From a virus: a stretch of DNA of 64,000 nucleotides. The notes under the pieces are model-generated. The model was not told the DNA's origin. It was given only the letters and a program-made list of their open reading frames with translations, and ran no database searches. Shown one piece after another: positions 8,263-64,000 of the stretch. The stretch lies in the IMG/VR virus record IMGVR_UViG_3300042502_001136, positions 19,239 through 83,238 of that record. One strand, given 5' to 3'. Every line of letters begins with the position of its first letter. Positions within the stretch are counted from its first letter, which is position 1. A program made the translations under genes and the position numbers.

Positions 8263-9303
8263 TTATTCAACAAGACTATTTTCTCTAATAAACTTTTCAT
8301 AACCATCATCAGAAATAATACCTTTTAAAGTTCTAGCAACATTATCAATAACTTCTTCAAGAGCACTATCTGATATATCAGTATTATGATTCAAAAATAC
8401 ATCAACTTTTTTAGGGTTACAAAGATATGTTAAATTTACAGTACTAAGTATAACAGTATCCGTTATTGGAAAGATAACAACTTTATCTCTAAGGTAAGCA
8501 ATACGACTATTATCTTTATTACCTGATAAATTAGAATGTTTAATAGACGTTTTAAATTCTTCATCTACAATTCTTACTTCTGCATCTAAAGTGTTAGCTA
8601 ATTCATAAACATTATAAGTTTCTTGTACTTCTTCTACTGTTATGTCCGTTTCCCCAATAGAGAAAGTTGTTGTTGAGTTTGTGTAACTTGCAATAACAAT
8701 TTTATTATTAACTTTATCATATGTTACTTCAAAACCAATAGGAAGATTTCGTTCAATAAGACTTATAATAAGATTATTATAAATAAAAGCTTTTTTATAA
8801 ACACTAACATTATCAGTAGGAAAATACTCATCAGGAAGTGTAGCAGTGTCTACTAAAGTAATAGTATCATCATCTACTTCTAGTATAATAAGTATATCAC
8901 TTATATCATCCAAACCACTATCTTCTATTGGGGGAAGGTATGTAAAATACTTTACTTTCTCGACAGTTTCCACTGTTTGACAATTACAACAAACAGAGGC
9001 TTCTGCACTAATATAATATAAATGATTAAAAGGAAGCTGAATAACAGCTTCCTTTTCATTTAATTGTAGTACAGGAACTTCTATTGTTTTTACTAAACTA
9101 TTAACATCTAAGATACGTTTGATAATATCGTAAGCCCCTTGTCTTTTTTCATTAGATAAAGGACTAAGACGTTGTTTAATAAACTTTAAGATTTCTTTAT
9201 TAATAAATATATCTTTTTCTTGTGGTAAAAAGTTATTACTCCAATTACTACTAACTTCTTGTAACAGTAAGTCTATATTTACGTGTAATTCCTGTGTAGT
9301 CAT
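8263..9303 (-). CDS. crAss-like ring/neck protein
   Basis: MT..ELH....L.LQ......FLPQEKD.FIN N-terminus and TYL..P.KV C-terminus characteristic of crAss ring proteins. Confidence 0.65.
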   Translation of the reverse strand: MTTQELHVNIDLLLQEVSSNWSNNFLPQEKDIFINKEILKFIKQRLSPLSNEKRQGAYDIIKRILDVNSLVKTIEVPVLQLNEKEAVIQLPFNHLYYISAEASVCCNCQTVETVEKVKYFTYLPPIEDSGLDDISDILIILEVDDDTITLVDTATLPDEYFPTDNVSVYKKAFIYNNLIISLIERNLPIGFEVTYDKVNNKIVIASYTNSTTTFSIGETDITVEEVQETYNVYELANTLDAEVRIVDEEFKTSIKHSNLSGNKDNSRIAYLRDKVVIFPITDTVILSTVNLTYLCNPKKVDVFLNHNTDISDSALEEVIDNVARTLKGIISDDGYEKFIRENSLVE

Positions 9304-12110: not shown

Positions 12111-13418
12111 TTAGCCTAAGAGTCTTTCTAGTGATAAATTATCATCAGCTTGTTGTGCAGTTCTTGGTACACCAGTATCTGTTATAACTTTAGCTTTTTG
12201 TTGTTTTAATCTATCTTTAAGACTTGAGACTTTTTGTTCTTTAGCAATAACTTCTGCAAGTTTGCTAATATCGTATTTTTTAAAACGTAAAAAAGAAACC
12301 ATTAATTGGAAGTTAATATCTTCTTTGGCTTCATCTAACATTTCAGCACTATTTCCTTCTGCATCTACCGGTTTAGATAGGTAAGTAAGAAAAGCATCTT
12401 TATCTTTAATAGGAATATTAATATTTCCTAATTTTCCTTCTTTTACAGTTTCAGAAACTTTATTCCAATATTGTTCTACTTGTTGTCTTTCAAGAGCAAC
12501 CTGTTGTTTAATTTGATTATCTCTTTCAGCAATATCTTGATGTTGTTTTTGGTTTAAATAGGCAACAGCAGTAGCTAATTCAGCATCTACAATTTCTTGT
12601 CCACCTTTTTTAAGTCCTTCTATAATATTAGTAGGATTTGCAATACCTTGTTTTTTATAGTAACGAGATAATAAATCTTCTTTAGAATTATTATCAAGAG
12701 CAGTTAGATTAATTTTCTTATAATCAACTATATCTTGAACAAATGTAGAAGGGTCATCACCTAATAACAAGTGTTGATAGAATTGTTTCATTCTATAATC
12801 ACTGTCTAAAAATTCTTTAATACTATTAGCTTTACCGAGTTTAACAGCTTCTTCTACTACGGTAATCATTCCTTCTATTGTATCATCTACTTGTAGATGA
12901 GATAAATCAAGACCGAATTGAGTATTTAAAGCATTTTTAGTTTCTTCTACTAAAGGTAAATCTACTTGAGCAGGTGTAACTACTTCTCCTTTTGCATTAA
13001 CTAAATCTCCTTTATCATTTAAAGGAAGATTATCATTTTCAATATATTCTTTTAATTGAGCAGCAGTAAAGATAATTTCATTCTTATCATTTAATAAATT
13101 ACCACTTTTATCAATATTACTAGCTTTAAATACATCAAGTATTCCAGCTTTAAGTTCTTTTTCTTCTGCAGATAAAGCTTCATCAGCTTTAATTAAAGAA
13201 GGTAAAGTACTTTCAAAAGATTCTACTGCCGGTTCCCCACTAGAAGAAGGTGTTTGTGTTGTTGGTACAACAGGTACAACAGGTGCTTCAGGAGCAGGTG
13301 TTTGTGCAGCGGGTTGTGCAGGTGGAGTAACTTGTTGTACTCCATCAATAATATTGTCAAGGGTTACTAATGGTTCATCTACAGCAGGTGCTGTATTACC
13401 TTGTGCTTGTCCTTCCAT
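12111..13418 (-). CDS. Putative capsid scaffolding protein
   Basis: Between portal and MCP; P/A/Q-rich acidic N-terminus and coiled coil. Confidence 0.65.
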   Translation of the reverse strand: MEGQAQGNTAPAVDEPLVTLDNIIDGVQQVTPPAQPAAQTPAPEAPVVPVVPTTQTPSSSGEPAVESFESTLPSLIKADEALSAEEKELKAGILDVFKASNIDKSGNLLNDKNEIIFTAAQLKEYIENDNLPLNDKGDLVNAKGEVVTPAQVDLPLVEETKNALNTQFGLDLSHLQVDDTIEGMITVVEEAVKLGKANSIKEFLDSDYRMKQFYQHLLLGDDPSTFVQDIVDYKKINLTALDNNSKEDLLSRYYKKQGIANPTNIIEGLKKGGQEIVDAELATAVAYLNQKQHQDIAERDNQIKQQVALERQQVEQYWNKVSETVKEGKLGNINIPIKDKDAFLTYLSKPVDAEGNSAEMLDEAKEDINFQLMVSFLRFKKYDISKLAEVIAKEQKVSSLKDRLKQQKAKVITDTGVPRTAQQADDNLSLERLLG

Positions 13419-18512: not shown

Positions 18513-19445
18513 CTACTTTAGTAAAGATTGTTTATGATGATTTAACATTATCTGTACCTCATTTTTTAAATAAGGCATTTTTAGTAGTCTAGGAGCATTA
18601 CCAACAGGAAAGTGAATTATCTCTAATCCATTCTCAATAAAATTATATCCCCACTGTTCTAATATAAAAGCATAAGTACTTAATTGTAAAGCCATAATAT
18701 TAAATTTACTAGCTTCAATCATATCAAGAGGGTATTTAAATGTTTCTCCAGTTGCTATAAATAAATCACTTTTAATCCATTTACCACCAACATTAATTTT
18801 TTTATAATAACCTGCTTGTTGTTTTATAGTATCTTTATTAGTCTTCCAATCTAATATACAAAAGTGTTTATCTTTAACAACAGGACAATCTATCATACCA
18901 GCAATACCATATTCTCTAAGAAATACTTTTTTCTCAGCAAATATAGAAAAACCTCTATCAAGATAAGCACTAAGTCTAGTATGAACTTCAGGATATTTTT
19001 CTGCTATAGGAGTACCATCTAATTCGTGCTTTAACGTTATTATCTTTTCCCCTCTAGGTGTGATGTTTGTGTTGGTCGTGGCAAAGTAATCTCCTTTACT
19101 TTGATTAATACTAAGCTCTAATTCATTGTGGGTAGCATTTCCTCTTTCACAAGCTTCAAAATTAAGTCCTTTCCATTTAGCTACAACTTCATCATACCAA
19201 TTCTTAAATCTTGTATCTAACATTAAATTCTTTAAAGGATATAAAACATTATTAACATAAATACTTCTAGTTTCAGGTTGAGGTTTAACTTTATAGTTAT
19301 GGTCTTTTAAACAAGTATACATAGCCCAAAATTCATTATCAAATTGATTAGTATATTTACCTATTAAAGTAGTAACAGATGTATAAACTGTACCTTGTTC
19401 ATCGTAATACTTATGTTCTGCTTCATTAAATAATATAGTATCCAT
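18513..19445 (-). CDS. PD-(D/E)xK exonuclease
   Basis: F.EAEHKY, YTSVTTLI, RGNATH, AGMID, ILDWKTN, LQLSTY. Confidence 0.85.
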   Translation of the reverse strand: MDTILFNEAEHKYYDEQGTVYTSVTTLIGKYTNQFDNEFWAMYTCLKDHNYKVKPQPETRSIYVNNVLYPLKNLMLDTRFKNWYDEVVAKWKGLNFEACERGNATHNELELSINQSKGDYFATTNTNITPRGEKIITLKHELDGTPIAEKYPEVHTRLSAYLDRGFSIFAEKKVFLREYGIAGMIDCPVVKDKHFCILDWKTNKDTIKQQAGYYKKINVGGKWIKSDLFIATGETFKYPLDMIEASKFNIMALQLSTYAFILEQWGYNFIENGLEIIHFPVGNAPRLLKMPYLKNEVQIMLNHHKQSLLK

Positions 19446-20968: not shown

Positions 20969-21535
20969 CTATTTATTATTACCTTTATCTGTTAATATAA
21001 GTGGTGGATTTTTTTCATCTATATAGGCTTTAACTTGGTCAACTACGCCTACTATTGGTTCTGCTCTATTATTAATAATAGCAGCTTCTCTTATAGCTTC
21101 TTCTACAGTAATATCTTCAGGAGTTACTACTGGTTTACTAATACTATTAATATAAATAGCAAAGCTAGTATTAATATAACTAGCAATACCATTAAGAAAG
21201 AAATCTTTATATGCTTGTAGTTCGCATTTTGTTGCATTTTCCCCAATAGAAGGAGGATAGTAGTTATTTACTAATTCAATTCGTTTACCAATAATACTTT
21301 CACTTTTATCAGTAAGTACTAATATAAAAGCATAATAATTAGTAATAGGTTTAACTCCATCAAGAGTAATAACTTTATCACCTTTAACAAATTCAATAGT
21401 ATATGAATATTTACGTTTATTAGCATAAGCTTGATTAGTAAGAAAAGCTAATATAGATTTAGCTTGTAGACGATAATTAGTAAGTTCTTGAGGAACAACT
21501 TTATTACCTTTGTCAGTATTATTAGATTCTATCAT
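20969..21535 (-). CDS. Hypothetical protein, first gene of late block
   Basis: 188-aa ORF behind a TAnnTTTG promoter. Confidence 0.65.
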   Translation of the reverse strand: MIESNNTDKGNKVVPQELTNYRLQAKSILAFLTNQAYANKRKYSYTIEFVKGDKVITLDGVKPITNYYAFILVLTDKSESIIGKRIELVNNYYPPSIGENATKCELQAYKDFFLNGIASYINTSFAIYINSISKPVVTPEDITVEEAIREAAIINNRAEPIVGVVDQVKAYIDEKNPPLILTDKGNNK

Positions 21536-21612: not shown

Positions 21613-21862
21613 TTTAAAGCGAAAATTCGTATAATATTTTTCATTCTTACAAAACCATCTTCTATTGGGGAAAAGCCGGTACGAGTGTTAAAAATGTTAA
21701 ATTATTAGTATATCAAATCCATATACAATATATTATATATATAGTAAATTATAATATATGTATTTTTGATAGAGGTAATATAGGTGGAACTATTTAATAC
21801 TTGTAAATGTGCAAGTATAGGGTTTCTTGTGGGTGGTTTTGACGAAAGTCTTGAGGGTAATC

Positions 21863-22077
21863 GATGTTGGTGTTAGGTAGAGGTGTAAGGATTTTGTAGG
21901 AAAAAGGTAGAGGGTAAGGTGTTTAAAGAGAGGGATTTAAATGAGGTTGTATAGGGATTGTAATAAAAGGGGATTTTGTTGTAGGAGTTTATGGAGGGTA
22001 AGGGGATTTTGTTGATGGTGTTGGAAGGGTTGATGTGGGTGTAGGGATTAGAGGATTGGGGTGTAGAGGAATAGGTA
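21863..22077 (+). other. 215-nt C-less, G-rich tract
   Basis: No C between 21862 and 22078; many GG/GGG runs. Confidence 0.9.
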
Positions 22078-22938: not shown

Positions 22939-22967
22939 TCATTTCATGTAATTGTTTACGGGAATGA

Positions 22968-27533: not shown

Positions 27534-27547
27534 ATAAATAACTAATA

Positions 27548-28137: not shown

Positions 28138-28373
28138 ACCCCTTTGTAGTACTATAATATTACTTTAGATATAAAGTTCAATACAAGTGTTTAAAATAAG
28201 CCAAGAATTTTACTAATGATGATATTTACCCCAATAGAAGATAGTGTTCGTTTGAGGTAATTGAAATATATCATTATATTAGTGATAATATTAATGCTCA
28301 TATTACAGACAAAACAAACATTCCCTCTATTGGGAAAAATATTAACTATAGAAACTTTAATAATTATATATAT

Positions 28374-30200: not shown

Positions 30201-31556
30201 ATGACTCTTACACCTGACCAAGAGTTAGCAAAAACACAAATATTAGCATGGGCTGAAAACACTATTCTTAAAACTGATTATGATTATTTTATTACACTAG
30301 CAGGTTATGCTGGTACTGGTAAAACAACTGTAATTAATAATATCTTACAACAGTTAAGACATAAAAAGATAGTGGTTTCAGCTCCTACACATAAAGCTAA
30401 AAATGTAATTGCTGCCTCTACAAATAAAACTGCTGAAACTATACAAAAACTATTAGGTTTAAGACCTGATGTTGATTTAGCAGATTTTAATCCTAATAAA
30501 CCTGTTTTTATGCAAATGGCAGAAGAAACTATTCAATTTTATAACATACTTGTTATAGATGAAAGTTCTATGCTTAATGAAGCCGCTGTTAATCTTATTT
30601 TTGAAAAAGCAGTTAAACACAGAGTTAAAGTAATTTTTATGGGAGATAAATATCAACTTCCTCCAGTAGGAGAAGTATTAAGTAAAATATTTAATCTACC
30701 CAATGTTGTATATTTAGATACTATTGTTAGACAATCTAATACTAACCCTAATCAAAAGTTAATTGAAATAGCTAGAGATGATGTTAGAAATGGAACTGAC
30801 CATATTCATAAATATATTAAAGAAGTTAAACATGATATGAATGACAAAGAAGGATTTAAAGTCCTTAATAAAGAACATTTTTATCCTGCATTAATAGAAA
30901 AGTATTATGATGCTGAATACAATCAAAATCCTAATTTAGTTAAAACTATTGCATGGACAAATAAATCTGTTAAAGCATTAAATCTTTATATTAGAAGTAA
31001 ACTTCTTCCTAATAGTGATTTAGTTACAGTAGGTGATATTCTTATGGGATATAAACCTATTACAAAAGAAATACAAGCTCCACCTTATTATATTCCATTA
31101 GTAGAAAACTCTGCTGATTATATAGTAACTAAAGTAACTAAAAAAAGTAATTTTATTGTAGGTGTTCCTATTGAAGGCTATGATGTAGAATTTAAAGATA
31201 AAAAATATCCTGTTTTTATTCTAGCTAGAGAAAGTTATCCTGTTTTTATTGAACAATATAAACAAAGACTTTCAGTAGGTAAAACACAAAGACGTTGGAA
31301 ATCTTTTTATGAATTTAAAGATGCTATTTGTATCATTGAAGATATTTATGATGAAAACCTTCAATTAGTTTGTAGTAAAGATATTGATTATGGTTATGCT
31401 ATTACAGTACATAAATCTCAAGGTAGTACGTATACAAATGTTTGTACATTATTATCTGATATTTGTCGTAATAGAACTGCTGCTGATAGAAGAAAACTTA
31501 TTTATGTAGCTCTTTCAAGAACTTCTCAAGAAAATATAATATATGATAACTCTTAA
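30201..31556 (+). CDS. SF1B Dda/RecD-like DNA helicase
   Basis: GYAGTGKTT, APTHKA, IDESSM, GDKYQLPPV, YAITVHKSQGST, YVALSR. Confidence 0.92.
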   Translation: MTLTPDQELAKTQILAWAENTILKTDYDYFITLAGYAGTGKTTVINNILQQLRHKKIVVSAPTHKAKNVIAASTNKTAETIQKLLGLRPDVDLADFNPNKPVFMQMAEETIQFYNILVIDESSMLNEAAVNLIFEKAVKHRVKVIFMGDKYQLPPVGEVLSKIFNLPNVVYLDTIVRQSNTNPNQKLIEIARDDVRNGTDHIHKYIKEVKHDMNDKEGFKVLNKEHFYPALIEKYYDAEYNQNPNLVKTIAWTNKSVKALNLYIRSKLLPNSDLVTVGDILMGYKPITKEIQAPPYYIPLVENSADYIVTKVTKKSNFIVGVPIEGYDVEFKDKKYPVFILARESYPVFIEQYKQRLSVGKTQRRWKSFYEFKDAICIIEDIYDENLQLVCSKDIDYGYAITVHKSQGSTYTNVCTLLSDICRNRTAADRRKLIYVALSRTSQENIIYDNS

Positions 31557-31884: not shown

Positions 31885-34212
31885 ATGATATACTTTGTAA
31901 CAGAAAGAAAAGAATATTATAGAGAACGTATTAATAAAGATATATTTTCTGATATTATTATTCTAGATAGTATCGAAGGAAAAGAGCTTTATTATAAATT
32001 ACTAGGTAAACGAAAAATACTAGCATTTGATATTGAAGCTAATGGATTGGATGCTCATACACTTAGTCCCATACTTTATGGTATTGGTGTTAAAGGTATT
32101 CAATTTATGTTTGATTGGACTGTTGATATTAAAGATATTTTTGAACACATATTAAAGTATAATATTATATTACTAGGACACAATTTAAAGTATGATATAA
32201 AGGTAATAGCAGTAAATTATAATATACTGTTTACAAAACTTTATGATACTATGATTGCAGACCAAAGAATATGGATGAAAACTGGATATAGATTTAGTTA
32301 TGCTGAATTAGTACAAAGATACTTAAATAAAACAGTTCTTAAATCTACTAGAAATGAATTTATTGATGCAGACCCTTCTACATTTAAAATAACTGCTTCT
32401 CATTTATATTATCTTAAAGGAGATTTAGTTGATTTATTTGATATTAGAAAAATACAACAAAAACACATTAAGAAATATAATATTCCTTTTCTTATTTATG
32501 GTATAGAATTTCCATTAATCTCAGTTATAGCAGAAGCAGAACTTACTGGTTTTGAATTTAACATAGATTTATGGAGAGAACGTATTAAAAAAGATAAAGA
32601 AGAATTATATAAACTTAAATTAGCTTTAGATGCTGAAGTTAAAAAGTTAAAAGAGTTTGTAAGTTTATTTGGAGATAATGGAGATATTAGTATTAATACT
32701 CTATTAGGCGGACAAAAATATAATAAAGAACGCAAACCTAGTGAATTAGAAGATTTTGTTAATACTGATGATACTGTTAATCAACCTGATTTATTTGGTA
32801 ACAAAATGACTACTAGAGCTTTTACAGGACTAAAAAAGAAGATTGATATTAATGTAGGAAATATTAATTATAAATCTAAAAAAGATATAGTTTTTATATT
32901 TGCTGCATTAAAAGAACCTCTTATTACTCCTTTAGAAACTATTGCCGTTCCACAACTAGATAAAAAAGGTAAATTAATTGGTAGCGTTGATAATTTTACT
33001 ATTAAAGCTGATTTATTACAAAAGTTTATATTGTTAAAGCCTAATTCTAAGATGATACCATTTATAGAATTAATTATAAAACATAGTAAACTTGAAAAAG
33101 CTTTAAGTACTTATGGTGAAAATTTTATTAATAAAATTAATCCTAAGACTGGTAAAATTCATACTATCTTTAGACAATGTGATGCAGATACAGGTAGATA
33201 TCAATCCGGAGGAGGAGATAATGAACCTGATAAATATAATGCACAAAACATTCCTAGAGATAATGCTTATAGAAATTGTTTTACTGTTGATACAAGTAAA
33301 TATAGTTTAGTTACTGCTGATTATGAAGGTGCAGAATTAGTAGTTATGGCATCTCATGCTCAAGACTTTAAACTAATAGAGATATCTAAACAAGATATGC
33401 ATAGCTATATGGCAACTAAATGTTGGAAAAATATTTACTATTATAGAGCTAAAAGATTATTTGATTATTTTAGTGGTAATATTGCAGGAAAAACAACAGA
33501 ATTAATAAATGAATATAAACAATTAAAAGACTTATCACAAAACTATTTAGTTACTAAAGCTATAAAATATGTTCGTGATGCTTTTAAACCTATGACTTTT
33601 GGAGTTATTTATGGTATGTATCCTAAAAAAGCAGGAGCAACCTTAAATATACCATCAGAAGAAGGTAAAATTGTTATTCAAACTATTGAAGCTGAAATTC
33701 CTGATACTATTAAAATGGTTAAACAAGCTTCTGCTTTTGCTAAAGCTAATGGTTATGTTATTTTAGAATCTAGAACTAATGCACGTGCATGGTTTCCTAA
33801 TCTTATTAAACTTCTTAAAAAAGAAATTAATGAAAAGGATAACTTTTATGATATATCTAGTGAATTATCGGCTGCTCGTAATATTAGAATTCAAGGTACT
33901 CAAGCTACATTTCTTAAAGAAGCCGCAGTAGTATTACGTAAATATTTTAAAAAACATAAAATAGATGCTATTCAATTATCTTGGGTACATGATGAATTTA
34001 TTATTCAAATACCTCTTCATTTAGATGGTCAATCAGATGAATGGAAAGAATGGAGTAAGTCAAATTCACTCAAACACCCTCTATCTATTGGGGAAACTGT
34101 TGAAAGTCTAGCAGATGTTATTAAAATTGTATTACAAGAAGTTGCTAATAAATATTTAGAAAATATTACTATTAGAGTTGATTTACAAGTAAAACCTTAT
34201 TGGTTTAAATAA
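31885..34212 (+). CDS. polA: Family A DNA polymerase with 3'-5' exonuclease
   Basis: FDIEANG, GHNLKYD, DTGRYQS, NAQNIP, ADYEGAEL (motif A), R..FK..TFGVIYG (motif B), VHDE (motif C). Confidence 0.95.
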   Translation: MIYFVTERKEYYRERINKDIFSDIIILDSIEGKELYYKLLGKRKILAFDIEANGLDAHTLSPILYGIGVKGIQFMFDWTVDIKDIFEHILKYNIILLGHNLKYDIKVIAVNYNILFTKLYDTMIADQRIWMKTGYRFSYAELVQRYLNKTVLKSTRNEFIDADPSTFKITASHLYYLKGDLVDLFDIRKIQQKHIKKYNIPFLIYGIEFPLISVIAEAELTGFEFNIDLWRERIKKDKEELYKLKLALDAEVKKLKEFVSLFGDNGDISINTLLGGQKYNKERKPSELEDFVNTDDTVNQPDLFGNKMTTRAFTGLKKKIDINVGNINYKSKKDIVFIFAALKEPLITPLETIAVPQLDKKGKLIGSVDNFTIKADLLQKFILLKPNSKMIPFIELIIKHSKLEKALSTYGENFINKINPKTGKIHTIFRQCDADTGRYQSGGGDNEPDKYNAQNIPRDNAYRNCFTVDTSKYSLVTADYEGAELVVMASHAQDFKLIEISKQDMHSYMATKCWKNIYYYRAKRLFDYFSGNIAGKTTELINEYKQLKDLSQNYLVTKAIKYVRDAFKPMTFGVIYGMYPKKAGATLNIPSEEGKIVIQTIEAEIPDTIKMVKQASAFAKANGYVILESRTNARAWFPNLIKLLKKEINEKDNFYDISSELSAARNIRIQGTQATFLKEAAVVLRKYFKKHKIDAIQLSWVHDEFIIQIPLHLDGQSDEWKEWSKSNSLKHPLSIGETVESLADVIKIVLQEVANKYLENITIRVDLQVKPYWFK

Positions 34213-39566: not shown

Positions 39567-40280
39567 ATGGATTTGAATTTAAGTATTAATAAAGATACTA
39601 GAGGAAGTGCTAATAATCCTATTCCTGCTCCTCGTTTGTTAGCTCTTGCTACAACCATATTTCCTTATAAATATGAATTTCCTGTTGCTCATTTAGTTAA
39701 TGTTTCTTTTGACCCTAAGAAAGAAGTAAAACGTAATGATGTAACAGAAAATGTTCCTGCTCTTATTTTCTTATTTAAAGATAAGGATAAAAGACAATTT
39801 ACTCATATTGAGTTCCCATTAGACCCAACAGATGATAAAATTAAGAAAAAACAAGATGCTTTATTATCTCGTATTAAACATATTTGGGATGAAACTATTG
39901 GAGCTGATAAACTTCCTGCCGGTGTATTAGAAGGTAAATCTTTTGCTGAATTTTATGAAAATGTAGCAAAAGGATTTAATGCAATTACTTATACTAAAGA
40001 TGATAAAACATATAAAACTTACTCTGCTAATGCTTTATATATTAAATTATCTTATTATAATGCTAATTTGCAACTTCCTCAATACCCTAATTTCATACAA
40101 CCTGCTACTAGTGGGGGAAATCAAAAAGTATGTGAATTGAGAATTAATCCTACTTATGACTCTGTTGAGCCTAAAGCTAAAGCTAAAGCAGGAGGAAATC
40201 AAAGTGGACATAATAATGAATTTGGTGGAGGAGAAAGTTTTGGTGGTAATTTCTCTGAAGATTTACCTGATATTGAATAA
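39567..40280 (+). CDS. crAss-type ssDNA-binding protein candidate
   Basis: RIKHI, LP.YPNFI; G-rich linker and acidic EDLPDIE tail; directly before primase. Confidence 0.6.
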   Translation: MDLNLSINKDTRGSANNPIPAPRLLALATTIFPYKYEFPVAHLVNVSFDPKKEVKRNDVTENVPALIFLFKDKDKRQFTHIEFPLDPTDDKIKKKQDALLSRIKHIWDETIGADKLPAGVLEGKSFAEFYENVAKGFNAITYTKDDKTYKTYSANALYIKLSYYNANLQLPQYPNFIQPATSGGNQKVCELRINPTYDSVEPKAKAKAGGNQSGHNNEFGGGESFGGNFSEDLPDIE

Positions 40281-40341: not shown

Positions 40342-41475
40342 ATGATAAACTTAAAGTTACTCCCTACTTTAACAAAACCATACTTATTAGAGAGGGTAAG
40401 TCAAGAGGAAATAATGTTATATTATATAGGTATTCCTGTTAATACACAAACATTAGAAGGCAGTTCCTTTTTATCTCCATTTAGAAGTGAAAATAACCCT
40501 GATAAAAATCCAACTTGTAATTATTATTATAGTGAAAATGGTAAACTACGAATCAAAGATTGGAATGGTTCTTTTCATGGAGATATATTTGATGTTGCAT
40601 CTTGGGCAACAAAAATTAATAGTAAAACATCTCAAGGTTTTAAACTATTATTAAACAAAATTGCTTATGATTTTAAAGTACATAAATATAGTGTTGATGA
40701 AGAAAGAAAAAAATTCAATATTCTTTATAAACAACATATTACTACTAAAGAATTAAAAGTATTTAAAGTTATACCAAGACCATTTAATAAATTTGATGGT
40801 AAAACTTGGTATGATAGATGGGAAATTTCTAGTAGTTTACTTAAATTAGGAAAAGTTATTCCTGTACAAGAACTACAAGTAGAAGGAAACGATGGGTATC
40901 TTCATACTAAATATGTATATAATTCTTATAATCCTGGATATGCTTATTATGGAGGAGAAATAAATGGAATTATATTATGGAAAGTTTACTTTCCTCTTAC
41001 TAAAGATAAGAACAAAAAATTTATTACTAATTATTCTTTTATTCAAGGACTAAATCTATTAGTACCTGCTAGAGTAATTGTAATCACTAAATCTTTTAAA
41101 GATGTATTATGTTTTAGAGTATTTGGAATTGTAGCTATTTGTGTACCTTCTGAAACTTATGTAATTTCTAAGGAAATTATGTTTAAGTTAAAAAGCTATG
41201 CAGATATAGTAGTTACTAATTTTGATTACGATAAAACAGGTATATTACTTGCTAATAAATATAAGAGAGTACATAATTGTTATCCTATTATGTTTACTCG
41301 TGGTAGATTTAATCAACCTGATTTTGGAGTTAAAGATTTTACAGAGTTCCGAGAAACATACGGAACAGAAAAAACAAAAGCATTAATAATTAATACTTTT
41401 GATAAATACAAAGAATTATTCACATACATCGATAACCTAAACAAACAAGCAATAAAATGGATAGAGCCGAATTAG
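40342..41475 (+). CDS. crAss-type DnaG-family primase
   Basis: SPFR...DKNPTC, KD.NG...GDIFD, ITKSFKDV, FDYD.TG TOPRIM, KDFTE. Confidence 0.85.
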   Translation: MINLKLLPTLTKPYLLERVSQEEIMLYYIGIPVNTQTLEGSSFLSPFRSENNPDKNPTCNYYYSENGKLRIKDWNGSFHGDIFDVASWATKINSKTSQGFKLLLNKIAYDFKVHKYSVDEERKKFNILYKQHITTKELKVFKVIPRPFNKFDGKTWYDRWEISSSLLKLGKVIPVQELQVEGNDGYLHTKYVYNSYNPGYAYYGGEINGIILWKVYFPLTKDKNKKFITNYSFIQGLNLLVPARVIVITKSFKDVLCFRVFGIVAICVPSETYVISKEIMFKLKSYADIVVTNFDYDKTGILLANKYKRVHNCYPIMFTRGRFNQPDFGVKDFTEFRETYGTEKTKALIINTFDKYKELFTYIDNLNKQAIKWIEPN

Positions 41476-42549: not shown

Positions 42550-43842
42550 ATGGAAAAGCTATATAAAAAAGATAGTAAAGGTAAAATACTTGAATGGTCA
42601 GCTGAATATGAACACACTTCAAATGGTGTTGATATTCATCTATATTCAGGTGAAATAAACGGAAAAATTACAAAGACTGTAAGAGCCGGAATTAAAGGAA
42701 AAAACATAGGAAAATCTAATGAAACTTCTCCTTTAACCCAAGCAGTTAATGAAATTGAAAGTTTATATAAAAGAAAAAAAGATTTAGGATATAAATCTCT
42801 TATAGATTTAAATTATAATTTTGGTAATGGTTTTGATACTGTTATGTCTATAAGTGATTTTCTTAATCAAACACTAACAAAAGATACTACTGATGCTGCT
42901 GGTAATCTTAAACCAATGAAAGCACAACAATATTATCGTAGTAAAAAAGATTGGGTTGATAATCAAGGTAATATATGGAAAGATAGAAAATACTTTTATT
43001 TACTTAACCCATATGAAAGAAAAGAAAGAGGAGCAATAATTATAGGTTTTCCTTGTCTTATTCAACCTAAAATTAATGGTGTAAGATGCACTATTAGTTT
43101 AGATGAAAATAATAATGTTCAGATTCTTAGTAAAGAGGGTAAACGTTATAATCTTCCCCATATAGAGGAAGTGTTCGTTCAGTACAAATCAATATTTACC
43201 GTATATAAAGAAGATGAACAAGAAGAAATTTTCTTTGATGGTGAATTATATATTCATGGTGAAAAATTACAAGTAATAAGTAGTGCAGTTAAAGCACCAA
43301 ATTTAGATACAAGTAGAGTTAAATTTGTTTGTTTTGATTTAGGTACAACATTATTTAGTAATTTAAAAAGAATACAATTAATGAAACAGTTAATAACTCA
43401 ATTAACTTCTCATATAATTGATGCTTCAGTAGAATATTTAGCTACATATCGTGTTGGTTCTGATGCAATTGTACAAAGTATGACTGATAAGTTTATTGAA
43501 CAAGGTTATGAAGGTTCAATATTAAGAGAAGAATTTGGTGTATATGCTTTTGGTAAAAGACCTATGTCAATGGTTAAACTTAAAAGAGTTATGGATACTG
43601 AATTTTTAATTGTTGATATTATACCACAAGAAAAAGATAATAATCTAGGATTATATGTATGTAGAACTTCTGAAGGTAAAGAATTTAATGTTACTCCTAC
43701 TGGTAATAATGAATTCAAAAGTTTAATATTATTTCAAAAACATCTTTATATAGGTAAAATGTTAACTTGTAAATTTTATGAATATACAGAAGCAGGAATA
43801 CCTTTTCATGTATTAGATAATATTGTAAGAGATTATGAATAA
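42550..43842 (+). CDS. ATP-dependent DNA ligase
   Basis: QPKINGVRC (KxNG), FDGELY, CFD, GYEGSILR, VKLK; WGR-like N-terminus. Confidence 0.92.
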   Translation: MEKLYKKDSKGKILEWSAEYEHTSNGVDIHLYSGEINGKITKTVRAGIKGKNIGKSNETSPLTQAVNEIESLYKRKKDLGYKSLIDLNYNFGNGFDTVMSISDFLNQTLTKDTTDAAGNLKPMKAQQYYRSKKDWVDNQGNIWKDRKYFYLLNPYERKERGAIIIGFPCLIQPKINGVRCTISLDENNNVQILSKEGKRYNLPHIEEVFVQYKSIFTVYKEDEQEEIFFDGELYIHGEKLQVISSAVKAPNLDTSRVKFVCFDLGTTLFSNLKRIQLMKQLITQLTSHIIDASVEYLATYRVGSDAIVQSMTDKFIEQGYEGSILREEFGVYAFGKRPMSMVKLKRVMDTEFLIVDIIPQEKDNNLGLYVCRTSEGKEFNVTPTGNNEFKSLILFQKHLYIGKMLTCKFYEYTEAGIPFHVLDNIVRDYE

Positions 43843-45774: not shown

Positions 45775-45873
45775 AGGCTCGTACACGCACACAAGTCAAA
45801 CCAAACCTATCTTCTATTGGGGAACATACTAGAATACCAAAATACTATTTCGATTGAATACAGCCCTTTAAAA
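45769..45873. repeat. ~105-bp element with imperfect terminal inverted arms around the dispersed motif
   Basis: ttttaaaggctcgta ... tacagccctttaaaa flank TCTATTGGGGAA (45813). Confidence 0.65.
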
Positions 45874-51891: not shown

Positions 51892-52381
51892 AGTAGAACT
51901 AAATACTAAACTTTATCAAATTGATAGAAATAAAAGAGAAGAAGGCTTAGTAGAAAATAGATTTAATATTTTTAATTGTATTTTAATTACTAAATTAGGT
52001 AAATATTATTTATATCAATTTGCTTTAAATAGTTTTGGTACTATTACTACAAAATCAGCTCAAGCAGATTATAATAATATTATTAATATATTTGAATTAG
52101 ATAAACAAGACAGAAATAAAACTTTTACTGAAATTATTAAAAAGAATAAAACTAAATTAGGTTTTTATTATAGTACTTTACATTCTGTTTTTTATTTTAG
52201 TGAAACTAATCAAGTTGAAGATTCTTTTGCAGGTTTTGCTTTAAATTATAAAGATTTAAAAGAAGATGTTAATAAATTATTAATTGGAGAAATACACGCT
52301 TTAGAAACTAAAAAGAAAGAAATAGAAGAAAAACTAGATAATCTTATAAAACAAGTTAAAGAAAATGGCACACAATCTTAA
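51878..52381 (+). CDS. Hypothetical protein
   Basis: ORF track; C-terminal coiled coil. Confidence 0.6.
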   Translation: MKGNKVELNTKLYQIDRNKREEGLVENRFNIFNCILITKLGKYYLYQFALNSFGTITTKSAQADYNNIINIFELDKQDRNKTFTEIIKKNKTKLGFYYSTLHSVFYFSETNQVEDSFAGFALNYKDLKEDVNKLLIGEIHALETKKKEIEEKLDNLIKQVKENGTQS

Positions 52382-53399
52382 TTTTACAAATAATAGAGCT
52401 AGTTTTGCTTCACGTAAAGAAATAGCTTGGCACAGTCTTGGACAAGTAGTAGATGCTATGACTTCAGAAGAAGCAATTAAACTTGGTGGTTTAGATTTTG
52501 AAGTTGAAAAAAGAGCAAAATATTATCATTCTAATAAGCATATTCTTTTTGATGATGCTAAAACTTATGATGTTATTTCAAGAGTTAAACTTAAAGATTC
52601 TAATATTTATAAACAAGAATTTGTTATTCCTGATAAATTTGTAACTGTTAGAAATGATACTAATCAATATTTAGGAGAAGTAGGAGCAAAATATGAAGTT
52701 ATTCAGAATTGGGAAGCTTTTGATTTTATGGATAGTATTATAGGAAAACAAGCTTCTTATGAAACTGTTGGTGCTTTAGGTAATGGAGAAACAGTATTTA
52801 TTACTGCTAAATTAACAGAAGAATTAGTAATTAATAAAGACCAAATAGATAAATATTTACTTGTTACTATGTCACATGATGGAAGTAGTAGTATTCAAGT
52901 AATGTTTACTCCTATTAGAGTTGTATGTAATAATACTTTAACTGCGGCTATTAAAGGTAATCAGAATAAAGTTAGTATTATGCATACTAGAAATGCTAAA
53001 GTTAAATTAGAAGCAAGTAAAAAGATACTAGGTATAGTAGACCAAGGAAGTCTAGCTTATAAAGAAATATTTAGTGATATGTTTAATTGTTACGTTAATG
53101 ATAAAGATGCTAAATCTGTTATTGAAAAATCATTAGGATTAGTTCGAGATGACAAAAACAACCTTTCTACTAGAGGGGAAAATATACTATTTCAAGCTAA
53201 TAAATATTATCATCAAGGTATTGGACAACAAGAAATTGTAGGTAATTATTGGGGAGTATACAATGGTGTAACTGGATATCTTCAAAATGTAAAAGAATAC
53301 AAAAATGAAGAAGTTAAATTCAAAAATACTTTTGATTCCGGAGATAGTAATGCAAGACAAAGAGCTTTTAATATTATTACTAATTTAATATATCAATAA
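52365..53399 (+). CDS. DUF932-family phage/plasmid protein
   Basis: MAHNL, AWHSLG, GLDFEV, YE.IQN.EAF.F.D, SHDGS, TPIRVVCNNTL. Confidence 0.88.
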   Translation: MAHNLNFTNNRASFASRKEIAWHSLGQVVDAMTSEEAIKLGGLDFEVEKRAKYYHSNKHILFDDAKTYDVISRVKLKDSNIYKQEFVIPDKFVTVRNDTNQYLGEVGAKYEVIQNWEAFDFMDSIIGKQASYETVGALGNGETVFITAKLTEELVINKDQIDKYLLVTMSHDGSSSIQVMFTPIRVVCNNTLTAAIKGNQNKVSIMHTRNAKVKLEASKKILGIVDQGSLAYKEIFSDMFNCYVNDKDAKSVIEKSLGLVRDDKNNLSTRGENILFQANKYYHQGIGQQEIVGNYWGVYNGVTGYLQNVKEYKNEEVKFKNTFDSGDSNARQRAFNIITNLIYQ

Positions 53400-53405
53400 G
53401 CTAAA

Positions 53406-53942
53406 ATGACTAGACAAGAAAGACAAAACATTATTATAAATGTTTTAACAGATTGTAGTACATTTAGTGGTAGAAAACTATTAGATGAATTTTCCCCAAT
53501 AGAAGTTGTGGATTTTTCTAATCATTTGATAAATACAACACCTGATACTTTTGATGAACATATCATTAAAACAACAGAAAGAATATTTATTAATTGGAGC
53601 AAAGAAAATATTAAAAATCATTGTGTAGGAGAGATTAATAAATTATTAAGAAGTTATATTAGTCTTACTTACAATAAAGAGAAATTAATATTATTAATGT
53701 ATTATCTAGGAATACTATATAAACTAGATAATGAAAGTATTACCAAAGATTTAAACAAAGTAGAACAATACTTTGAGTCATTACTTATATTAGATACTGA
53801 TGAATTAAAAGAAGAAGTAGCTAGTAACAATATCGAAGCACAAACCAAAAATGCAGGACACTATTATACAAGAGTATTAGATAATTTTATAATACTACCT
53901 ACATTAAAAACCAAAGAACATTTTAGTAATTTTATTCCGTAA
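53406..53942 (+). CDS. Hypothetical protein
   Basis: ORF track. Confidence 0.6.
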   Translation: MTRQERQNIIINVLTDCSTFSGRKLLDEFSPIEVVDFSNHLINTTPDTFDEHIIKTTERIFINWSKENIKNHCVGEINKLLRSYISLTYNKEKLILLMYYLGILYKLDNESITKDLNKVEQYFESLLILDTDELKEEVASNNIEAQTKNAGHYYTRVLDNFIILPTLKTKEHFSNFIP

Positions 53943-61000: not shown

Positions 61001-64000
61001 TCCGGTACGTTGACGTAAATCTAATATTATAGTACCAAGACTATCATGAGTTTCAGTATCATAAAGTAGTTTATATCTTGTATCATATATGTTGTTGTCT
61101 TTCCCCAATAGATGGTATGTGTTTGATACAAGAAATGATTTGAACTCATTAGTAGCTTTATTTAATAAATCAGCTTCTTCATTAACAGTACTAACATTAC
61201 CAAATCTAATATTAATTAAATTAGATAAAATATCTCTAATATTACCTTTATTATAAGGATAATGCTTATTCCATAATACATTATTAAATAGTACACCATA
61301 TACACCAGCAAAACCACTAATAGTAGTAGGTCTAATCCATGTATCTCCGTATCGAACAAACCCATCTTCTATTGGGGAAGAGTATTCATAATCTCCAATT
61401 AGCTTACTTACACCTCTAATTTGTTTATCGTATTCAGGTAGTTTAATAATTTGGTCAGCTTTTTGTAAACTATAAAATAAGTTTTTACCAACTCCTTTAC
61501 TATCAGAATTTAAAGTACTTTGTATAACTTTAATTACTTCTCCTTTAGTTTTAAAATCATTAAAAAAGTATAATACTGCATTTTGATATTGAGTATCAGC
61601 TTCTCCATTAAGAGCTTCTATCATTTCATTTAATGTAGTTGTTTTTAATAAAGTTCTATATTCAGGATTATAAGACGGAACATCAGTTAATCCTTTATTA
61701 AAAGCTAATACACTTGGTTGATTTATAAAAGGAACAATAATATCTTCAGTAAAACCCATTAAAGCCATAACTCTAATAACATCAAATGTATCAGAATTAA
61801 TATTAAGTTTACCTAATAATTGTTCATTCTCATCATCTAATGCAGCAGATTGAAAAGCTGATATAACATCTGATTTATATTTACCTTTTTCAACTGAATG
61901 AGGATTATTTAAATCGGAATTATTAAATCCTGCTATATTAACACTATAATCAACTTCTCTTTTTAATTTCTTATCATATCTATAGAAATTCATATTAACA
62001 GGAATATGTTGAATAAGAGCATTAAAAACGTTATCAAGTGAAAATAAACCAACAGCAGACTTACCAGCTCTAGCACGTAAATATTTAGAACTTTGGTAAG
62101 TATTACTAAAAGAAGTAAAATCAGCAGAACTCTTAGCTTGTGGTATTTTACTAACTAATTCTTTTAAATTACCAAGACCAAGAGGATTAGCTCTAGCTGT
62201 TTGTACTTCTTTAGCAGGATTATCTAATACAGCAAAGTGTACATCTAATATCTTATTCTGTAATAAATCATCTTCAATGCCAACATATTTATATATTGCA
62301 CCTTGTTTAAGTTTTCTTATTTGACTTGATACAATAGTGATTCTATTAGCAATATCTATTTTAAGATTACGATGCTTTTCTATTTTCATAGCTTTCTTTA
62401 AATCTCTACTATGATTTCTTAAAGTTTCAAGACTTTTGAGTACATTTTGTCTTCTTTTTATATGTATATCACTTAAGATTTCAAAACTACCACTAGTTTT
62501 ATCAAAATAAGTATTATACATATGTGTATAAAGTTTATCAACATCAAAGTCAGAACCCATTTGTCTAACAAAATCAAGAGGAGCAACAATAATATCTCCA
62601 TAAACGTCAGGAAGAAATCCTACTACTTTAAGTAAAGACATACTATTTAAACCTTGTGTAGGAATACGATATCCAAAAGATTCAAGAGCTTTTTCAGGAA
62701 TTTTAGTTAAATCTAACATCCCATCTACCATAAAATCTTTAACAGATAAAGCATTTCCATCATTATCCCAAAATTTAAAAGGAACAAGAATTTCAGCATA
62801 AGTAATAGTACCGTCTACTTCTTTAGTAGCCGTTAATTCCCCATTCCAACCAGGAACTCTAATAATAGCATTTTCATCAATACTATCTAATGTTTGTATA
62901 TTAGTATTAGTTTTATCTAATCTAATTCCTGCTTCAGATGCTAATATAAAAGATTTACCTTTAAATTTTCTTTTTCTTACTTGATTATCTACAATAGAAT
63001 TTAATAAAGCACTAATTTTATTTTCAGAGTTATTTAACCATAAAGGAGTAGCAAAAGCAGTACCTAATTCATTTAATTCTAAACTATTAATATCATTAAT
63101 ATTATAATTTCGAGCTAATCCTTCTTTAATAAGAATTTCTCTTAATTTATTCATATTATTAATAGTACCAGTAATAGGATTAAATTCTAAATCATTAATA
63201 AGTTTATTATACTTATTCTCGAATAACTTACCATAATAACCATTATAAGAGGTTAATAATGTTCTACCATCTACTTTTTCTCCTGTTTCAGGATGAACAA
63301 AACCTTTAATATCTAATAAGTTAGTAAATAACATTTTACTTTGTTGAGTTCCATCATTTACATGATTTTTCTCTTCATCATAAGGATTTACCTGTTGAAT
63401 ACCGTGTCCTTCTCTAGGAATATTATCTAATAAACCGTCTTTCCAATTCTTAGGAATTATAACATCTTTACCATCTTTAGTAAATAATTTAGGAATATTT
63501 CTAGGTTTACCAATTTTAACAGCAGAAGCAAAAGCTACTCTATCAATAGATTCAGTTTCCATCAATACTCTTATTTTATCTAAAGGAGTATTAACTGTTA
63601 ATTGTTTAATTAATGGATAAGAAGAAGATTTAATATGAACTCTATAATCAATACCATTACGAAGAAAGTTATTTCCATATAAAGGTTTCATAGGTTGTAA
63701 AATTATACCTAAATCTTCTTTATCTACTAATCCTGTTTTATCATAAGTAGATAAAATACTATTCATTTTAGCTTTTGTAATTTCTCCTCTTTTAAATAAT
63801 ATTTTAAGGTGTTCAGCTAATGTAGTAAATTCTTGCCCATCAGCAGCATCAATATCTTTATAAAGAGAAGGTATATCTGAATTAACTCCAAATAAACTAT
63901 TTAAATAAGATAAAGCAGTACTAGTCATTTTAACATCATCAATAACTAATACATTCATAGTTTCATCTTTATCTGATATAATAGGACTCTTACCACCATT
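55016..64000 (-). CDS. Giant virion-packaged RNA polymerase polyprotein (crAss-type), 5' end outside window
   Basis: YRIPTQGLNSM and GSDFDVDKLY (DxDxD at 62551-62537); frame stays open from 63958 to window edge (NGGKSPIISDKDETM). Confidence 0.9.
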   Translation of the reverse strand, partial: NGGKSPIISDKDETMNVLVIDDVKMTSTALSYLNSLFGVNSDIPSLYKDIDAADGQEFTTLAEHLKILFKRGEITKAKMNSILSTYDKTGLVDKEDLGIILQPMKPLYGNNFLRNGIDYRVHIKSSSYPLIKQLTVNTPLDKIRVLMETESIDRVAFASAVKIGKPRNIPKLFTKDGKDVIIPKNWKDGLLDNIPREGHGIQQVNPYDEEKNHVNDGTQQSKMLFTNLLDIKGFVHPETGEKVDGRTLLTSYNGYYGKLFENKYNKLINDLEFNPITGTINNMNKLREILIKEGLARNYNINDINSLELNELGTAFATPLWLNNSENKISALLNSIVDNQVRKRKFKGKSFILASEAGIRLDKTNTNIQTLDSIDENAIIRVPGWNGELTATKEVDGTITYAEILVPFKFWDNDGNALSVKDFMVDGMLDLTKIPEKALESFGYRIPTQGLNSMSLLKVVGFLPDVYGDIIVAPLDFVRQMGSDFDVDKLYTHMYNTYFDKTSGSFEILSDIHIKRRQNVLKSLETLRNHSRDLKKAMKIEKHRNLKIDIANRITIVSSQIRKLKQGAIYKYVGIEDDLLQNKILDVHFAVLDNPAKEVQTARANPLGLGNLKELVSKIPQAKSSADFTSFSNTYQSSKYLRARAGKSAVGLFSLDNVFNALIQHIPVNMNFYRYDKKLKREVDYSVNIAGFNNSDLNNPHSVEKGKYKSDVISAFQSAALDDENEQLLGKLNINSDTFDVIRVMALMGFTEDIIVPFINQPSVLAFNKGLTDVPSYNPEYRTLLKTTTLNEMIEALNGEADTQYQNAVLYFFNDFKTKGEVIKVIQSTLNSDSKGVGKNLFYSLQKADQIIKLPEYDKQIRGVSKLIGDYEYSSPIEDGFVRYGDTWIRPTTISGFAGVYGVLFNNVLWNKHYPYNKGNIRDILSNLINIRFGNVSTVNEEADLLNKATNEFKSFLVSNTYHLLGKDNNIYDTRYKLLYDTETHDSLGTIILDLRQRTGALKPYTNPLLEKLQIGRSTMTATRTGKIPTEIKYYNAGVIEMNDEVIINSIIDMLVNDIYLGDYNGERLTTRILAEQLIQYQLVTGGVQQSAQFIKYIPYDYLKTIGFYKEMEATANLLDNDEFSKNAKEAFTTQYVQHNPEEFYNERVLENFEIVNNKLVAKDRAKIFRSFVVFPSAMPNKYRIFKFIPDIQEYIEIDVLGSKGMKEYDITLPFAGKSTIYINQADSGFERLNDKVEEEVQVIKKEYIPKITSINPPVTSQEQATSLSDFTNHSGGAYGGDTFWDIIGRPLGFTKHNHYKDAGNANLSQQLRNNKVTAVVLSKEQMDKARSEVERLLGKKYPNTLEGNLQVRNFYQVYNSDAVYAIAKLNSNNKSVSGGTNTAIQLGIKLNKPVYVWDINTEQWYKFNNKVFEKTETPILTKNFAGIGSRDIENYNVKKDDKWQPRQEYVGKEKEDKAKQAIKDVYVVTKNSINTLNYSTPTVSNTTSVQLDLFSNLSELSTENLPQPGTATDEFLSLDNNVSDLSSAKIYNTAMADLTKKYYLDDNSLAVEEKYRLILRQIRNNSNNPIIKYFADKIKGLTPLLSAVPFYVDTNLKARGVLLKSNMFAEPFQIRVNPNSFVSEEDLHLVVIEEIIHGITAMEVEKGSSTFVKELEALRKSVENDLINTYGQKAIDRVKYNSKHGLGLTTELDRNILYPIINLQEFIAASINNKLFQEYLNKPANEKAKTLWQRFIKAITDLLQRLGVKKDSNLEAVLHEILNLFENDITKDPAFYVPSVPLYVRTQDYLNKKLNLVNENNVPIQKDNAQEIVDFINKNIVNVVARNIDGRVVLDSNRFADFAYDENIGLTSEIVEGGVNSFPNYIKALEIRVKKLKSSIKKARDIEDFNRVAVLQEQYNKDAELLENAGDVKYLDNLADFAEQDLQTVEEMLKRPLTSEDLVYARSLTNFWKDSTELLFSPVAKKSKILTNLYAGIESEAKSLSDQLSLVEKEYLRNFVKTYINRDITIDEIFSEFKDINSLQNSFKDISTYDNELLTSIWAAVQTANIKAEDDFNKQLEGFEELSDKVLANLKARGYKELFDIFRQRTENGKLTGHLVNQYSKKFYERKAMLISGINANNVFSNFNAYLNHIGNIGLNTNIASLFPANNVITPEVIAAREALKQELGEYAYNSYMKNQQKKIDSYNEHKEGYLEILVSSYNLKSKADITNTEETNRKYENWLKANSPYSLEHYAFKGAPKSIEDYKYFNSHKYYELIPKREAVTADYFDSNFDIIKSDETLLAFYEFVNDTFSTLKKFVPDSQQEALAYGGIPFIEKSLYEMYSEKGFQLGFKPIQDAFIKSMQSSFSDNSSGVIDPNTGKPVQEMRIPMIKNNYEAIKDIVEKKTVEFIVENKREPNNVELYRFKEEAIDEISQQKSFDLPKVIKVYTALVMAHKHKAQIEDGIKIATTVMDSYKESFYRPDGTPITAGLGLIQKKPTAESFVKTKQATENFIKANMYNDIRDEEGKGGKVLTPTEKATKKELENSLIQLEEDLANNVITVEVYTEGAELIQDQLAKLGKTFIYSKAGDNLLKYLQVKLMGWNVLSGFSNMGFGWIANYIEAAGGQVYTKESLNYGYKLVMNSIGRNASFNHETGLYDLEVANKIRAGMNKWDVLKDASNELYTESTPNSFNKRFRWLSPYNMQKRTEYINQAPLLIALAKDTKVQTEKGETTVWDAMDNDFNWNTAEFGEEPKDVIIKLRLKLNQIIKRNHGNYDPASTINAKRSVLGRFALQFRTWMIDAIAVRVEKERFDDILGVEVKGRYRSVGDVYKRTTVGEFALEFMKGILRRYTFGAYKGGTFEGLVENNKIKAVDAANMRKVLTEVTMAINLNLLLLVVAGLKDDDDDEEKLQVLNVLINQGIRLRTDLMLYVNPMEARNLIRDIIPAVSIVKEVADFFYASGKALIGEDEFEAGIHAGDSRLVKASSKLLPFTSKAYSIYNSASQTYDKR

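Follow-up and report, generated by a model that had tools for sequence, protein, structure and literature searches.

A dispersed DNA motif on both strands of a crAss-like lake phage and its relatives

The DNA analysed here (hereafter the window) is a stretch of 64,000 nucleotides (nt), bases 19239-83238 of the 83,238-bp virus record IMGVR_UViG_3300042502_001136. The record assembles as a circle through a 127-bp overlap and yields a genome of 83,111 bp, labelled G000 below, with a G+C content of 27%. Its gene content and order are crAss-like (portal, terminase, capsid module, family A DNA polymerase, ligase and helicases), and a protein of 2,916 amino acids (aa) carries the DFDVD catalytic motif of the crAss-type virion RNA polymerase (RNAP). 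The portal is 25–29% similar to those of gut Crassvirales, with members of Intestiviridae as the top matches. Judged by gene order, the DFDVD protein and portal similarity, the phage is crAss-like, and its DNA was recovered at 99–100% word identity in many lake-water metagenomes. The subject of this work is a DNA motif built around the 12-mer TCTATTGGGGAA, which is dispersed through this genome in both orientations and is a real genome-wide DNA signal under DNA-level selection. Positions are window coordinates unless "genome" is stated.

The motif and its sites in the lake phage genome

A preliminary description of the window had listed eight exact copies of the 12-mer and ten close variants. 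The eight exact copies were found again at the same coordinates and on the same strands, against 0.02 expected from dinucleotide shuffles, and none of 100 shuffles reached eight. The ten variants were all recovered by a 29-nt weight matrix, at positions differing by no more than 1 nt. The matrix identified 23 sites in the 83,111-bp genome, of which 18 fall in the window, and second-order Markov shuffles gave 0 at a score of at least 15; a weak 24th copy lies at genome 18566(+). The sites in the window are as follows.

8650..8661, minus strand: exact core; upstream box at 8662-8677; sense in the open reading frame (ORF) 8263-9303(-)
8924..8935, plus strand: GGGGG variant; antisense in ORF 8263-9303(-); back-to-back partner of 8650, 274 bp away
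13233..13244, minus strand: TCTAGT variant; sense copy, aa 60 in the gene that follows the portal; position kept in the relatives G006 (aa 39), L074, L088, L089, L094 and L090-L092
15267..15278, plus strand: weaker copy; antisense in the portal gene
19047..19058, minus strand: weak copy CCTAGAGGGGAA; within the PD-(D/E)XK exonuclease gene
21239..21250, minus strand: exact core; left partner of the pair at the divergent module junction
21661..21672, plus strand: exact core; intergenic; right partner of the junction pair; homologous to G006 20140(-)
28227..28238, minus strand: core with one mismatch; intergenic
28326..28337, plus strand: core with one mismatch; intergenic; 99 bp from 28227
34084..34095, plus strand: exact core; sense, close to the 3' end of the family A DNA polymerase gene
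34285..34296, minus strand: copy; antisense, aa 27 in the gene that follows the DNA polymerase; position kept in G006 (aa 24)
40107..40118, plus strand: weak copy ACTAGTGGGGGA; sense
43155..43166, minus strand: weak copy TCTATATGGGGA; antisense in the ligase gene
45813..45824, plus strand: exact core; intergenic
53169..53180, plus strand: copy ACTAGAGGGGAA; sense, at aa 271 of the DUF932 gene; position kept in G006 (aa 272)
53492..53503, minus strand: exact core; antisense in the gene after DUF932; G006 has an antisense copy elsewhere in the same gene
61101..61112, minus strand: exact core; sense in the virion RNAP gene
61368..61379, plus strand: exact core; antisense in the virion RNAP gene; 267 bp from 61101

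Together these copies define an element of about 26–28 nt in three parts, namely an A/C-rich box (CAAAC/CGAAC), a pyrimidine tract and the core TCTA(T)TGGGGAA. The A/C-rich 5' flank noted previously proved to be real, as information content reaches about 16–20 nt upstream and the conservation runs through TCT and a pyrimidine-rich stretch up to the box. No consistent hairpin was observed within the sites (mean folding z = -1.2 for 16 sites).

The preliminary description had proposed a cis-acting, genome-wide signal selected as DNA and not as protein, and had named codon-preserving shuffles as a possible refutation. When synonymous codons were shuffled within genes, the copies were not reproduced: the 11 intragenic copies with at most one mismatch fell to about 1, and the total fell from 16 to a mean of 6.06, five of which are the untouched intergenic copies. 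The intragenic copies do encode different peptides, as their reading frames differ and both coding strands are involved, and they use codons that are rare in this genome (GGG supplies 3% of glycine codons, CCC 3% of proline codons and TCC 2% of serine codons). Since the shuffles erase the copies, the codons are rare, and frames and strands vary, selection acts on the DNA. Both parts of the proposal are borne out by the same evidence, which also includes the rare codons fixed in a TACGGGC island in eight relatives and the conservation of positions despite a changed motif, described below. A protein motif or codon artefact was ruled out by the synonymous-codon shuffles and by the reading in different frames.

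An origin as a host repeat was likewise rejected, since the matches of the 15-mer in 185,579 bacterial species genomes were only single ones attributable to chance; the same was seen in IMG/VR contigs outside the lineage, so the word is not common to unrelated viral contigs. In agreement with the earlier statement that the motif has no described function, literature searches returned no description of it. The elements that are new here are the lake lineage, the concerted change of the motif at conserved codons, the upstream box, the orientation statistics and the gene co-occurrence.

Conservation, strand distribution and spacing

The record IMGVR_UViG_3300020045_002401 (G006) is a complete, syntenic relative of 81.8 kb with a portal 43% identical to that of G000. 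No copy of TATTGGGG was found in G006. Its top enriched words define an analogous element, CGAAT-N5-TCTTC-TCTAYGGGCAAG, and a matrix scan detected 23 copies of it, 14 on the plus and 9 on the minus strand. Alignment of the encoded proteins identified five sites common to both genomes, each at the same codon position (within 1–3 codons) and in the same sense or antisense state, where by our own estimate about 0.1 would be expected by chance. They lie in a 735-aa virion protein, at the C-terminal end of a 1,454-aa protein, in the gene after the portal, in the gene after the DNA polymerase and in DUF932. The junction copy between the divergent modules is likewise common to the two genomes.

The copy in the gene after the portal could be followed further. 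In eight members of the G006 clade it appears as an invariant TACGGGC.AT island, with rare ACG and GGC codons fixed inside a linker that is otherwise unalignable or hypervariable. Among relatives closer to G000, the short contig L087 has a degenerate copy at this site, the short contig L086 has none there, and 20 kb of L286 and L287, whose DUF932 proteins are 51–53% identical, contained no enriched motif. Between close relatives (L073 vs L094, L091), recombination breakpoints fell together with a site at the module junction and nowhere else. As read from these alignments, the sites are old and have been kept in place with their sequence changed in concert, a pattern that marks a recognition site evolving together with a reader encoded by the phage.

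The signal thus occurs beyond gut phages, and beyond the lake as well. The same class of motif, a pyrimidine tract followed by TA(C/T) and a G-run, was found in all five gut Intestiviridae tested. Prototype crAssphage (BK010471.1) has 16 copies of CTCTACGGGG, against 0 for the reversed control, and 31 sites of the broader form, and crAss002, cr271_1, cr110_1 and cr8_1 have 17–37 sites. In these gut phages both strands are populated and each is evenly spaced. The crAssphage consensus CCATCCTCTAC-GGGG differs from CCATCTTCTAT-TGGGG of G000 by essentially one inserted base. Compared with the gut motif, the lake lineage carries either this extra base (TATTGGGG) or GGGC instead of GGGG, together with an added upstream CGAAT/CAAAC box and a back-to-back register of plus and minus sites. 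A de novo word-enrichment scan found nothing comparable in the Steigviridae crAss001 and phi14:2 or in four Suoliviridae. The gut phage cr127_1 (Crevaviridae, NC_055886.1) carries a different dispersed element of 45 nt, ACGAAT..TCGGAAC..CCTCTCG-CCCTTGTGGCC, in 10 copies, five per strand and with three inverted pairs (e.g. at 1769, 11354, 11912, 28698 and 28869); it has the ACGAAT/CGAAT box and a pyrimidine tract in common with the lake motif.

The sites of G000 are divided into 12 on the plus and 12 on the minus strand, with a spacing of about 7 kb on each. The coefficient of variation of this spacing is 0.17 (plus) and 0.30 (minus) compared with about 0.9 under the null (p < 1e-4). In the other motif-bearing genomes (seven in total) it ranges from 0.31 to 0.59, the sole non-significant series being the sparse minus strand of cr271_1. 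The spacing of site clusters is also regular (p = 0.002-0.015). Across strands, 71 of 189 sites are accompanied within 500 bp by a site on the opposite strand, whereas random rotation of one strand's series predicts 28.8. Strands alternate along G000, where 4 of 24 neighbours are on the same strand (p = 0.0008). In G000 and G006 most pairs are arranged back to back, that is, with the upstream boxes facing each other and the G-run ends pointing toward the long intervals. The gaps between facing boxes have a median of 381 bp in G000 and 387 bp in G006, including four pairs at 267–279 bp, whereas the gaps between facing G-runs have medians of 4881 bp and 3364 bp, respectively.

This geometry is indifferent to the direction of the genes. 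Intragenic copies comprise 74 in sense and 55 in antisense orientation (p = 0.11), and copies between co-directional genes are split 26 to 23 by orientation, which argues against promoters. Non-coding DNA is enriched 3-fold in sites, with 32% of sites in about 10% of the sequence.

Two further origins for the inverted pairs were rejected. A mobile element, such as a miniature inverted-repeat transposable element, does not account for them, as the 8650-8924 segment aligns throughout with a G006 homolog that lacks both copies and shows no insertion, and the interiors of different pairs are mutually dissimilar. Invertible segments of the Gin/Cin or shufflon type were discarded because inversion closes the frames: the antisense frames between pairs hold 1–20 stops.

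Genes and regions associated with the motif

All G000 proteins were compared with 13 other Crassvirales genomes (14 in total: seven motif-bearing, cr127_1 and six motif-less). Five genes were present in all seven motif-bearing genomes and in cr127_1, and none of them in the six motif-less genomes save for one weak RecT-like match in crAss001. The virion polymerase and the structural core were found in all 14 genomes, as was the primase listed last below. We treat the co-occurrence of the five genes with the motif as a lead, not as proof.

18513..19445, minus strand: late-module PD-(D/E)XK exonuclease, beside the terminase; homolog of crAssphage gp83; candidate reader; only in motif-bearing lineages and cr127_1
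42550..43842, plus strand: ATP-dependent DNA ligase; only in motif-bearing lineages and cr127_1
30201..31556, plus strand: Dda/RecD-like SF1 helicase; only in motif-bearing lineages and cr127_1
37855..38784, plus strand: RecT-like annealing protein; in motif-bearing lineages and cr127_1, with the one weak crAss001 match
52365..53399, plus strand: DUF932 protein, with no recognisable fold; only in motif-bearing lineages and cr127_1
40342..41475, plus strand: TOPRIM-type primase with a degenerate zinc ribbon and TOPRIM-like E...DYD motifs; in all 14 genomes, motif-less ones included

For the DUF932 protein, an AlphaFold2 model (pLDDT 82) gave no convincing match in the PDB, the best Foldseek E of 0.02 and the best VIA-align Z of 5.8 being within noise. 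No sequence match to solved structures and no functional literature were found for it. More than 3,800 homologs were detected, many of them on 81-91-kb contigs that resemble further members of this phage group. The giant 2,916-aa protein had no Pfam or PDB sequence match, and it was called a crAss-type RNAP solely because it contains DFDVD and is homologous to the RNAP genes of G006, crAssphage and phi14:2. Its counterpart in G006 (51827-67825) is 5,332 aa long, with DFDVD at residue 2927 instead of 406 and about 2,500 extra N-terminal residues. A GIY-YIG and NUMOD1 homing-endonuclease gene at 49566-50426, beside the dNMP kinase gene, has no homolog in G006 and, on this comparison, is probably a recent mobile insertion.

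The junction between the divergent modules has the same order in both lake genomes: a minus copy, AT-rich DNA, a plus copy, about 100–200 nt of AT-rich DNA, a G-rich, C-poor tract of 250–300 nt, a C-rich structured stretch and the first gene of the replication module. The tract of G000 is the following feature.

21780..22077, plus strand: G-rich, C-poor tract of about 300 nt, downstream of the junction copy by about 110 nt; G006 is arranged likewise

The junction region may be origin-like or prone to R-loops. A further G-rich, C-poor tract is located at 23784-23926. The word C(C/T)(C/G)GTAC recurs beside intergenic motif copies (21670-21685 and 45775-45790) and in the C-rich stretch after the G-rich tract (22090-22160).

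RNA was surveyed through Logan contigs of four lake metatranscriptomes. Such contigs are unable to show transcript starts or strand, so uncovered regions were not counted as evidence. The region of the first replication-module gene is the most abundant RNA in the lake samples. The deepest contigs cover 22146-23700 (depth 58–122) and the intergenic stretch 27462-28025 (depth 20–31), and contig ends recur across runs at 22146 and at 28016-28025. These abundant species may be early or non-coding RNAs, like those reported from intergenic regions of phi14:2. A mosaic junction was also observed at 28327, from which contigs of two RNA runs match the window after unrelated sequence; it coincides precisely with the 5' edge of the CTATTGGG core in the 28326(+) copy.

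Possible functions of the sites

Our best explanation, offered tentatively, is that the motif may be the recognition site of a phage-encoded enzyme acting on one strand, with the sites serving either as programmed nicks or as strand-initiation (primer start) points. The even spacing on each strand, the pairing across strands, the indifference to genes, the co-evolution at fixed positions and the accompanying DNA-metabolism genes together point to a one-strand enzyme of the DNA machinery. Such an enzyme would belong to replication, recombination or DNA maturation, not to transcription or protein coding. The act (nicking or priming) and the identity of the reading protein are the parts that we infer. 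Taken singly, nicking is a possibility of low confidence, and priming one of slightly lower confidence.

In this scheme, a single-strand nick or primer start would be placed about every 5–7 kb on each strand. In the lake lineage, plus and minus sites lie back to back, 50–420 bp apart, with their G-run ends toward intervals of 4–9 kb. Because the G-runs face the long intervals, both strands would be covered over the full length of the genome by any process beginning at the sites and moving 5'->3' on the motif strand. The late PD-(D/E)XK nuclease could make the nicks, the early ATP-dependent ligase could seal them, and the Dda-like helicase could drive displacement. A late nuclease and an early ligase would fit a make-and-seal cycle like that of phikF77, whose nicks are reported to be sealed early in infection and to be back late (PMC3517423).

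Localized nick motifs are a close parallel. As in the T5/BF23, phiKMV-like and tf/Rembedalsseter systems, a conserved word recurs (5–14 or more times there), mostly within genes and at similar positions among relatives, and its consensus drifts (PMC3517423, PMC11780129). In tf-like phages the nick motifs keep similar positions and co-vary with lineage, and the drift of such motifs suggests co-evolution of site and enzyme; their function is unknown there too (PMC3517423, PMC11780129). The differences are also clear. The nick systems use one strand, uneven spacing and words of 7–19 nt, whereas here both strands are equally populated, each is evenly spaced, inverted pairs occur and the element measures 26–28 nt with an upstream box. 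The presence of sites on both strands sets the lake motif apart from every described nick system.

For strand initiation, the comparison is with ssiA and ssiB of the IncQ plasmid RSF1010. There, the primase RepB' uses two 40-nt sites on complementary strands, each combining a six-base anchor on its 5' side with a start triplet on its 3' side, to support leading-strand-only replication (PMC8567376). The lake motif resembles these in being long, strand-specific, two-part in layout and present in inverted copies on complementary strands. It differs in that RSF1010 has one pair of sites in oriV, with hairpins and an AEP-type primase, whereas about 12 sites per strand are dispersed here, they form no hairpin and the primase is of the TOPRIM type.

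Several observations weigh against a one-strand nicking or priming enzyme. The back-to-back rule of the lake phages fails in gut Intestiviridae. Some inverted copies lie only 15–44 bp apart (G006 6312/6327, and in gut phages), so that nicking of both would come near to a double-strand break. The co-occurrence of the five genes rests on two or three clades and thus on few independent events. The primase is also present in motif-less families and is TOPRIM-type, not RepB'-like, and the sites lack the hairpin of ssiA/ssiB. Finally, the described nick systems have all their sites on one strand and space them unevenly (PMC3517423, PMC11780129).

Among the alternatives, binding of a DNA-organising or packaging protein (HU/IHF-like, a cargo protein or the terminase small subunit) is improbable but fares best. 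Inverted pairs would then be bridged or looped, and the spacing would reflect condensation, packaging or ejection. HU/IHF proteins, for their part, rarely read an invariant G-run, which counts against this alternative. The regular spacing of clusters, the independence of orientation from genes and the recurrence of inverted pairs at 267–279 bp in two genomes are in its favour. Each strand is nevertheless evenly spaced on its own and the plus and minus series of gut phages are largely unpaired, which argues for a process that reads a strand rather than for duplex binding. The HU/IHF-like gene at 20515-20967, put forward in the preliminary description as a candidate reader and a point for this view, has a sub-threshold Pfam match (E 0.005). 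An IHF-like gene is also annotated in the motif-less phi14:2 (bioRxiv 10.1101/2020.03.07.982082), so the gene is not a specific candidate.

A Chi-like role, at which a helicase-nuclease travelling from an end or break stops degrading and recombination begins, is more doubtful; the reader would be the phage Dda/RecD-like helicase with the nuclease and the RecT-like protein. These three proteins are found only in motif-bearing lineages, and both strands are populated and evenly spaced. In the lake phages the long intervals are bordered by G-run ends, and an enzyme moving away from any break would therefore encounter a site on its 3' side first, which is how RecBCD approaches Chi (geometry in PMC12315714). 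The motif also resembles Chi, including that of Chi-rich lambdoid phages, in being an over-represented, orientation-dependent word that runs through genes at one per few kb (PMC12315714). In those phages, however, one orientation dominates, sites cluster at one end and no Rec module is present (PMC12315714); here the strand counts are equal and alternating, spacing is even, and nuclease and RecT-like genes are encoded. The motif is moreover a lineage-specific word of 20–28 nt that differs between related phages and matches no repeated word of bacterial genomes. Chi, by contrast, is a host-specific word of 5–8 nt (an 8-mer in the form compared here), read by the host RecBCD or AddAB. We know of no phage-encoded Chi reader, which further disfavours this role.

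The sites are unlikely to be promoters (or terminators) of the virion RNAP or of another phage-directed system, with a start at the G-run as in T7-type promoters. Their size (about -19 to +7) and layout, with an upstream box, a TA step and GGG, resemble those of single-subunit RNAP promoters, and the likeness to the promoters of the T7 group and of P23-45's virion RNAP and its non-virion one (vRNAP/nvRNAP) extends to length, a G start, conserved positions and a consensus that co-varies with lineage. The two-barrel, single-subunit RNAPs of phages can use strongly conserved promoter motifs (bioRxiv 10.1101/2022.12.01.518664). The 3-fold intergenic enrichment, the divergent junction of G006, where each of the two copies points into its own module, and one low-depth RNA contig that begins at 8931, inside the G-run of the 8924+ copy, are also consistent with promoters. 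T7-group and P23-45 promoters, however, are co-oriented with genes, and the motif sites are not, by the intragenic and intergenic counts given above; antisense copies are even conserved at codon resolution. The deepest RNA contigs, which do not themselves mark transcript starts, begin at 22146-22251, at least 480 nt downstream of 21661+ and not at 21667, the bin right after the motif has a depth near zero, and RNA contigs span the 13233 copy. In addition, phi14:2 has the same type of RNAP without the motif, and no motif is common to its early or virion-polymerase transcripts (bioRxiv 10.1101/2020.03.07.982082). The earlier suggestion of virion-RNAP entry sites is disfavoured by the gene-independent orientation and by the strongest RNA contigs, which do not start at the motif. 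Searches of the genome turned up neither a T7-like RNAP nor a sigma-70 domain; as RNA_pol (PF00940) gave no match in any control genome either, that part of the result is uninformative.

An RNA-level signal, in which an inverted pair forms a long-range mRNA stem across a gene boundary for RNase III-like processing or translational control, is very improbable: many pairs, with arms sharing 10–15 identical bases, do straddle boundaries (G000 genome 18295/18566, 53322/53523 and 72407/72730; G006 28153/28432, 41610/42105, 46409/47223 and 69189/69725), but about 60% of sites lack a partner at a distance of 500 bp or less, pairs also occur deep in single genes (8650/8924, 61101/61368), the back-to-back preference of the lake phages is unnecessary for a stem, and the even spacing per strand is left unexplained.

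If the sites are indeed read by a one-strand nicking or priming enzyme, a novel form of genome handling can be envisaged, with low confidence, in which the genome would be replicated, or packaged as interrupted DNA, in strand-specific units of about 7 kb from sites that mark both strands every 5–7 kb. This would amount to genome-wide, multiplied leading-strand-only initiation across gut Intestiviridae and their lake relatives, for which we know of no description in a virus. In the human gut, crAss-like phages rank with the most abundant viruses, and their replication and DNA handling are largely unknown. Deep conservation, even spacing and strand specificity in a signal that takes precedence over codon preference across dozens of genes suggest that a step of DNA metabolism in this group has gone unstudied, for which the five co-occurring genes provide concrete proteins to test. 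The motif may also be used as a lineage marker and as a feature to avoid or keep in phage engineering.

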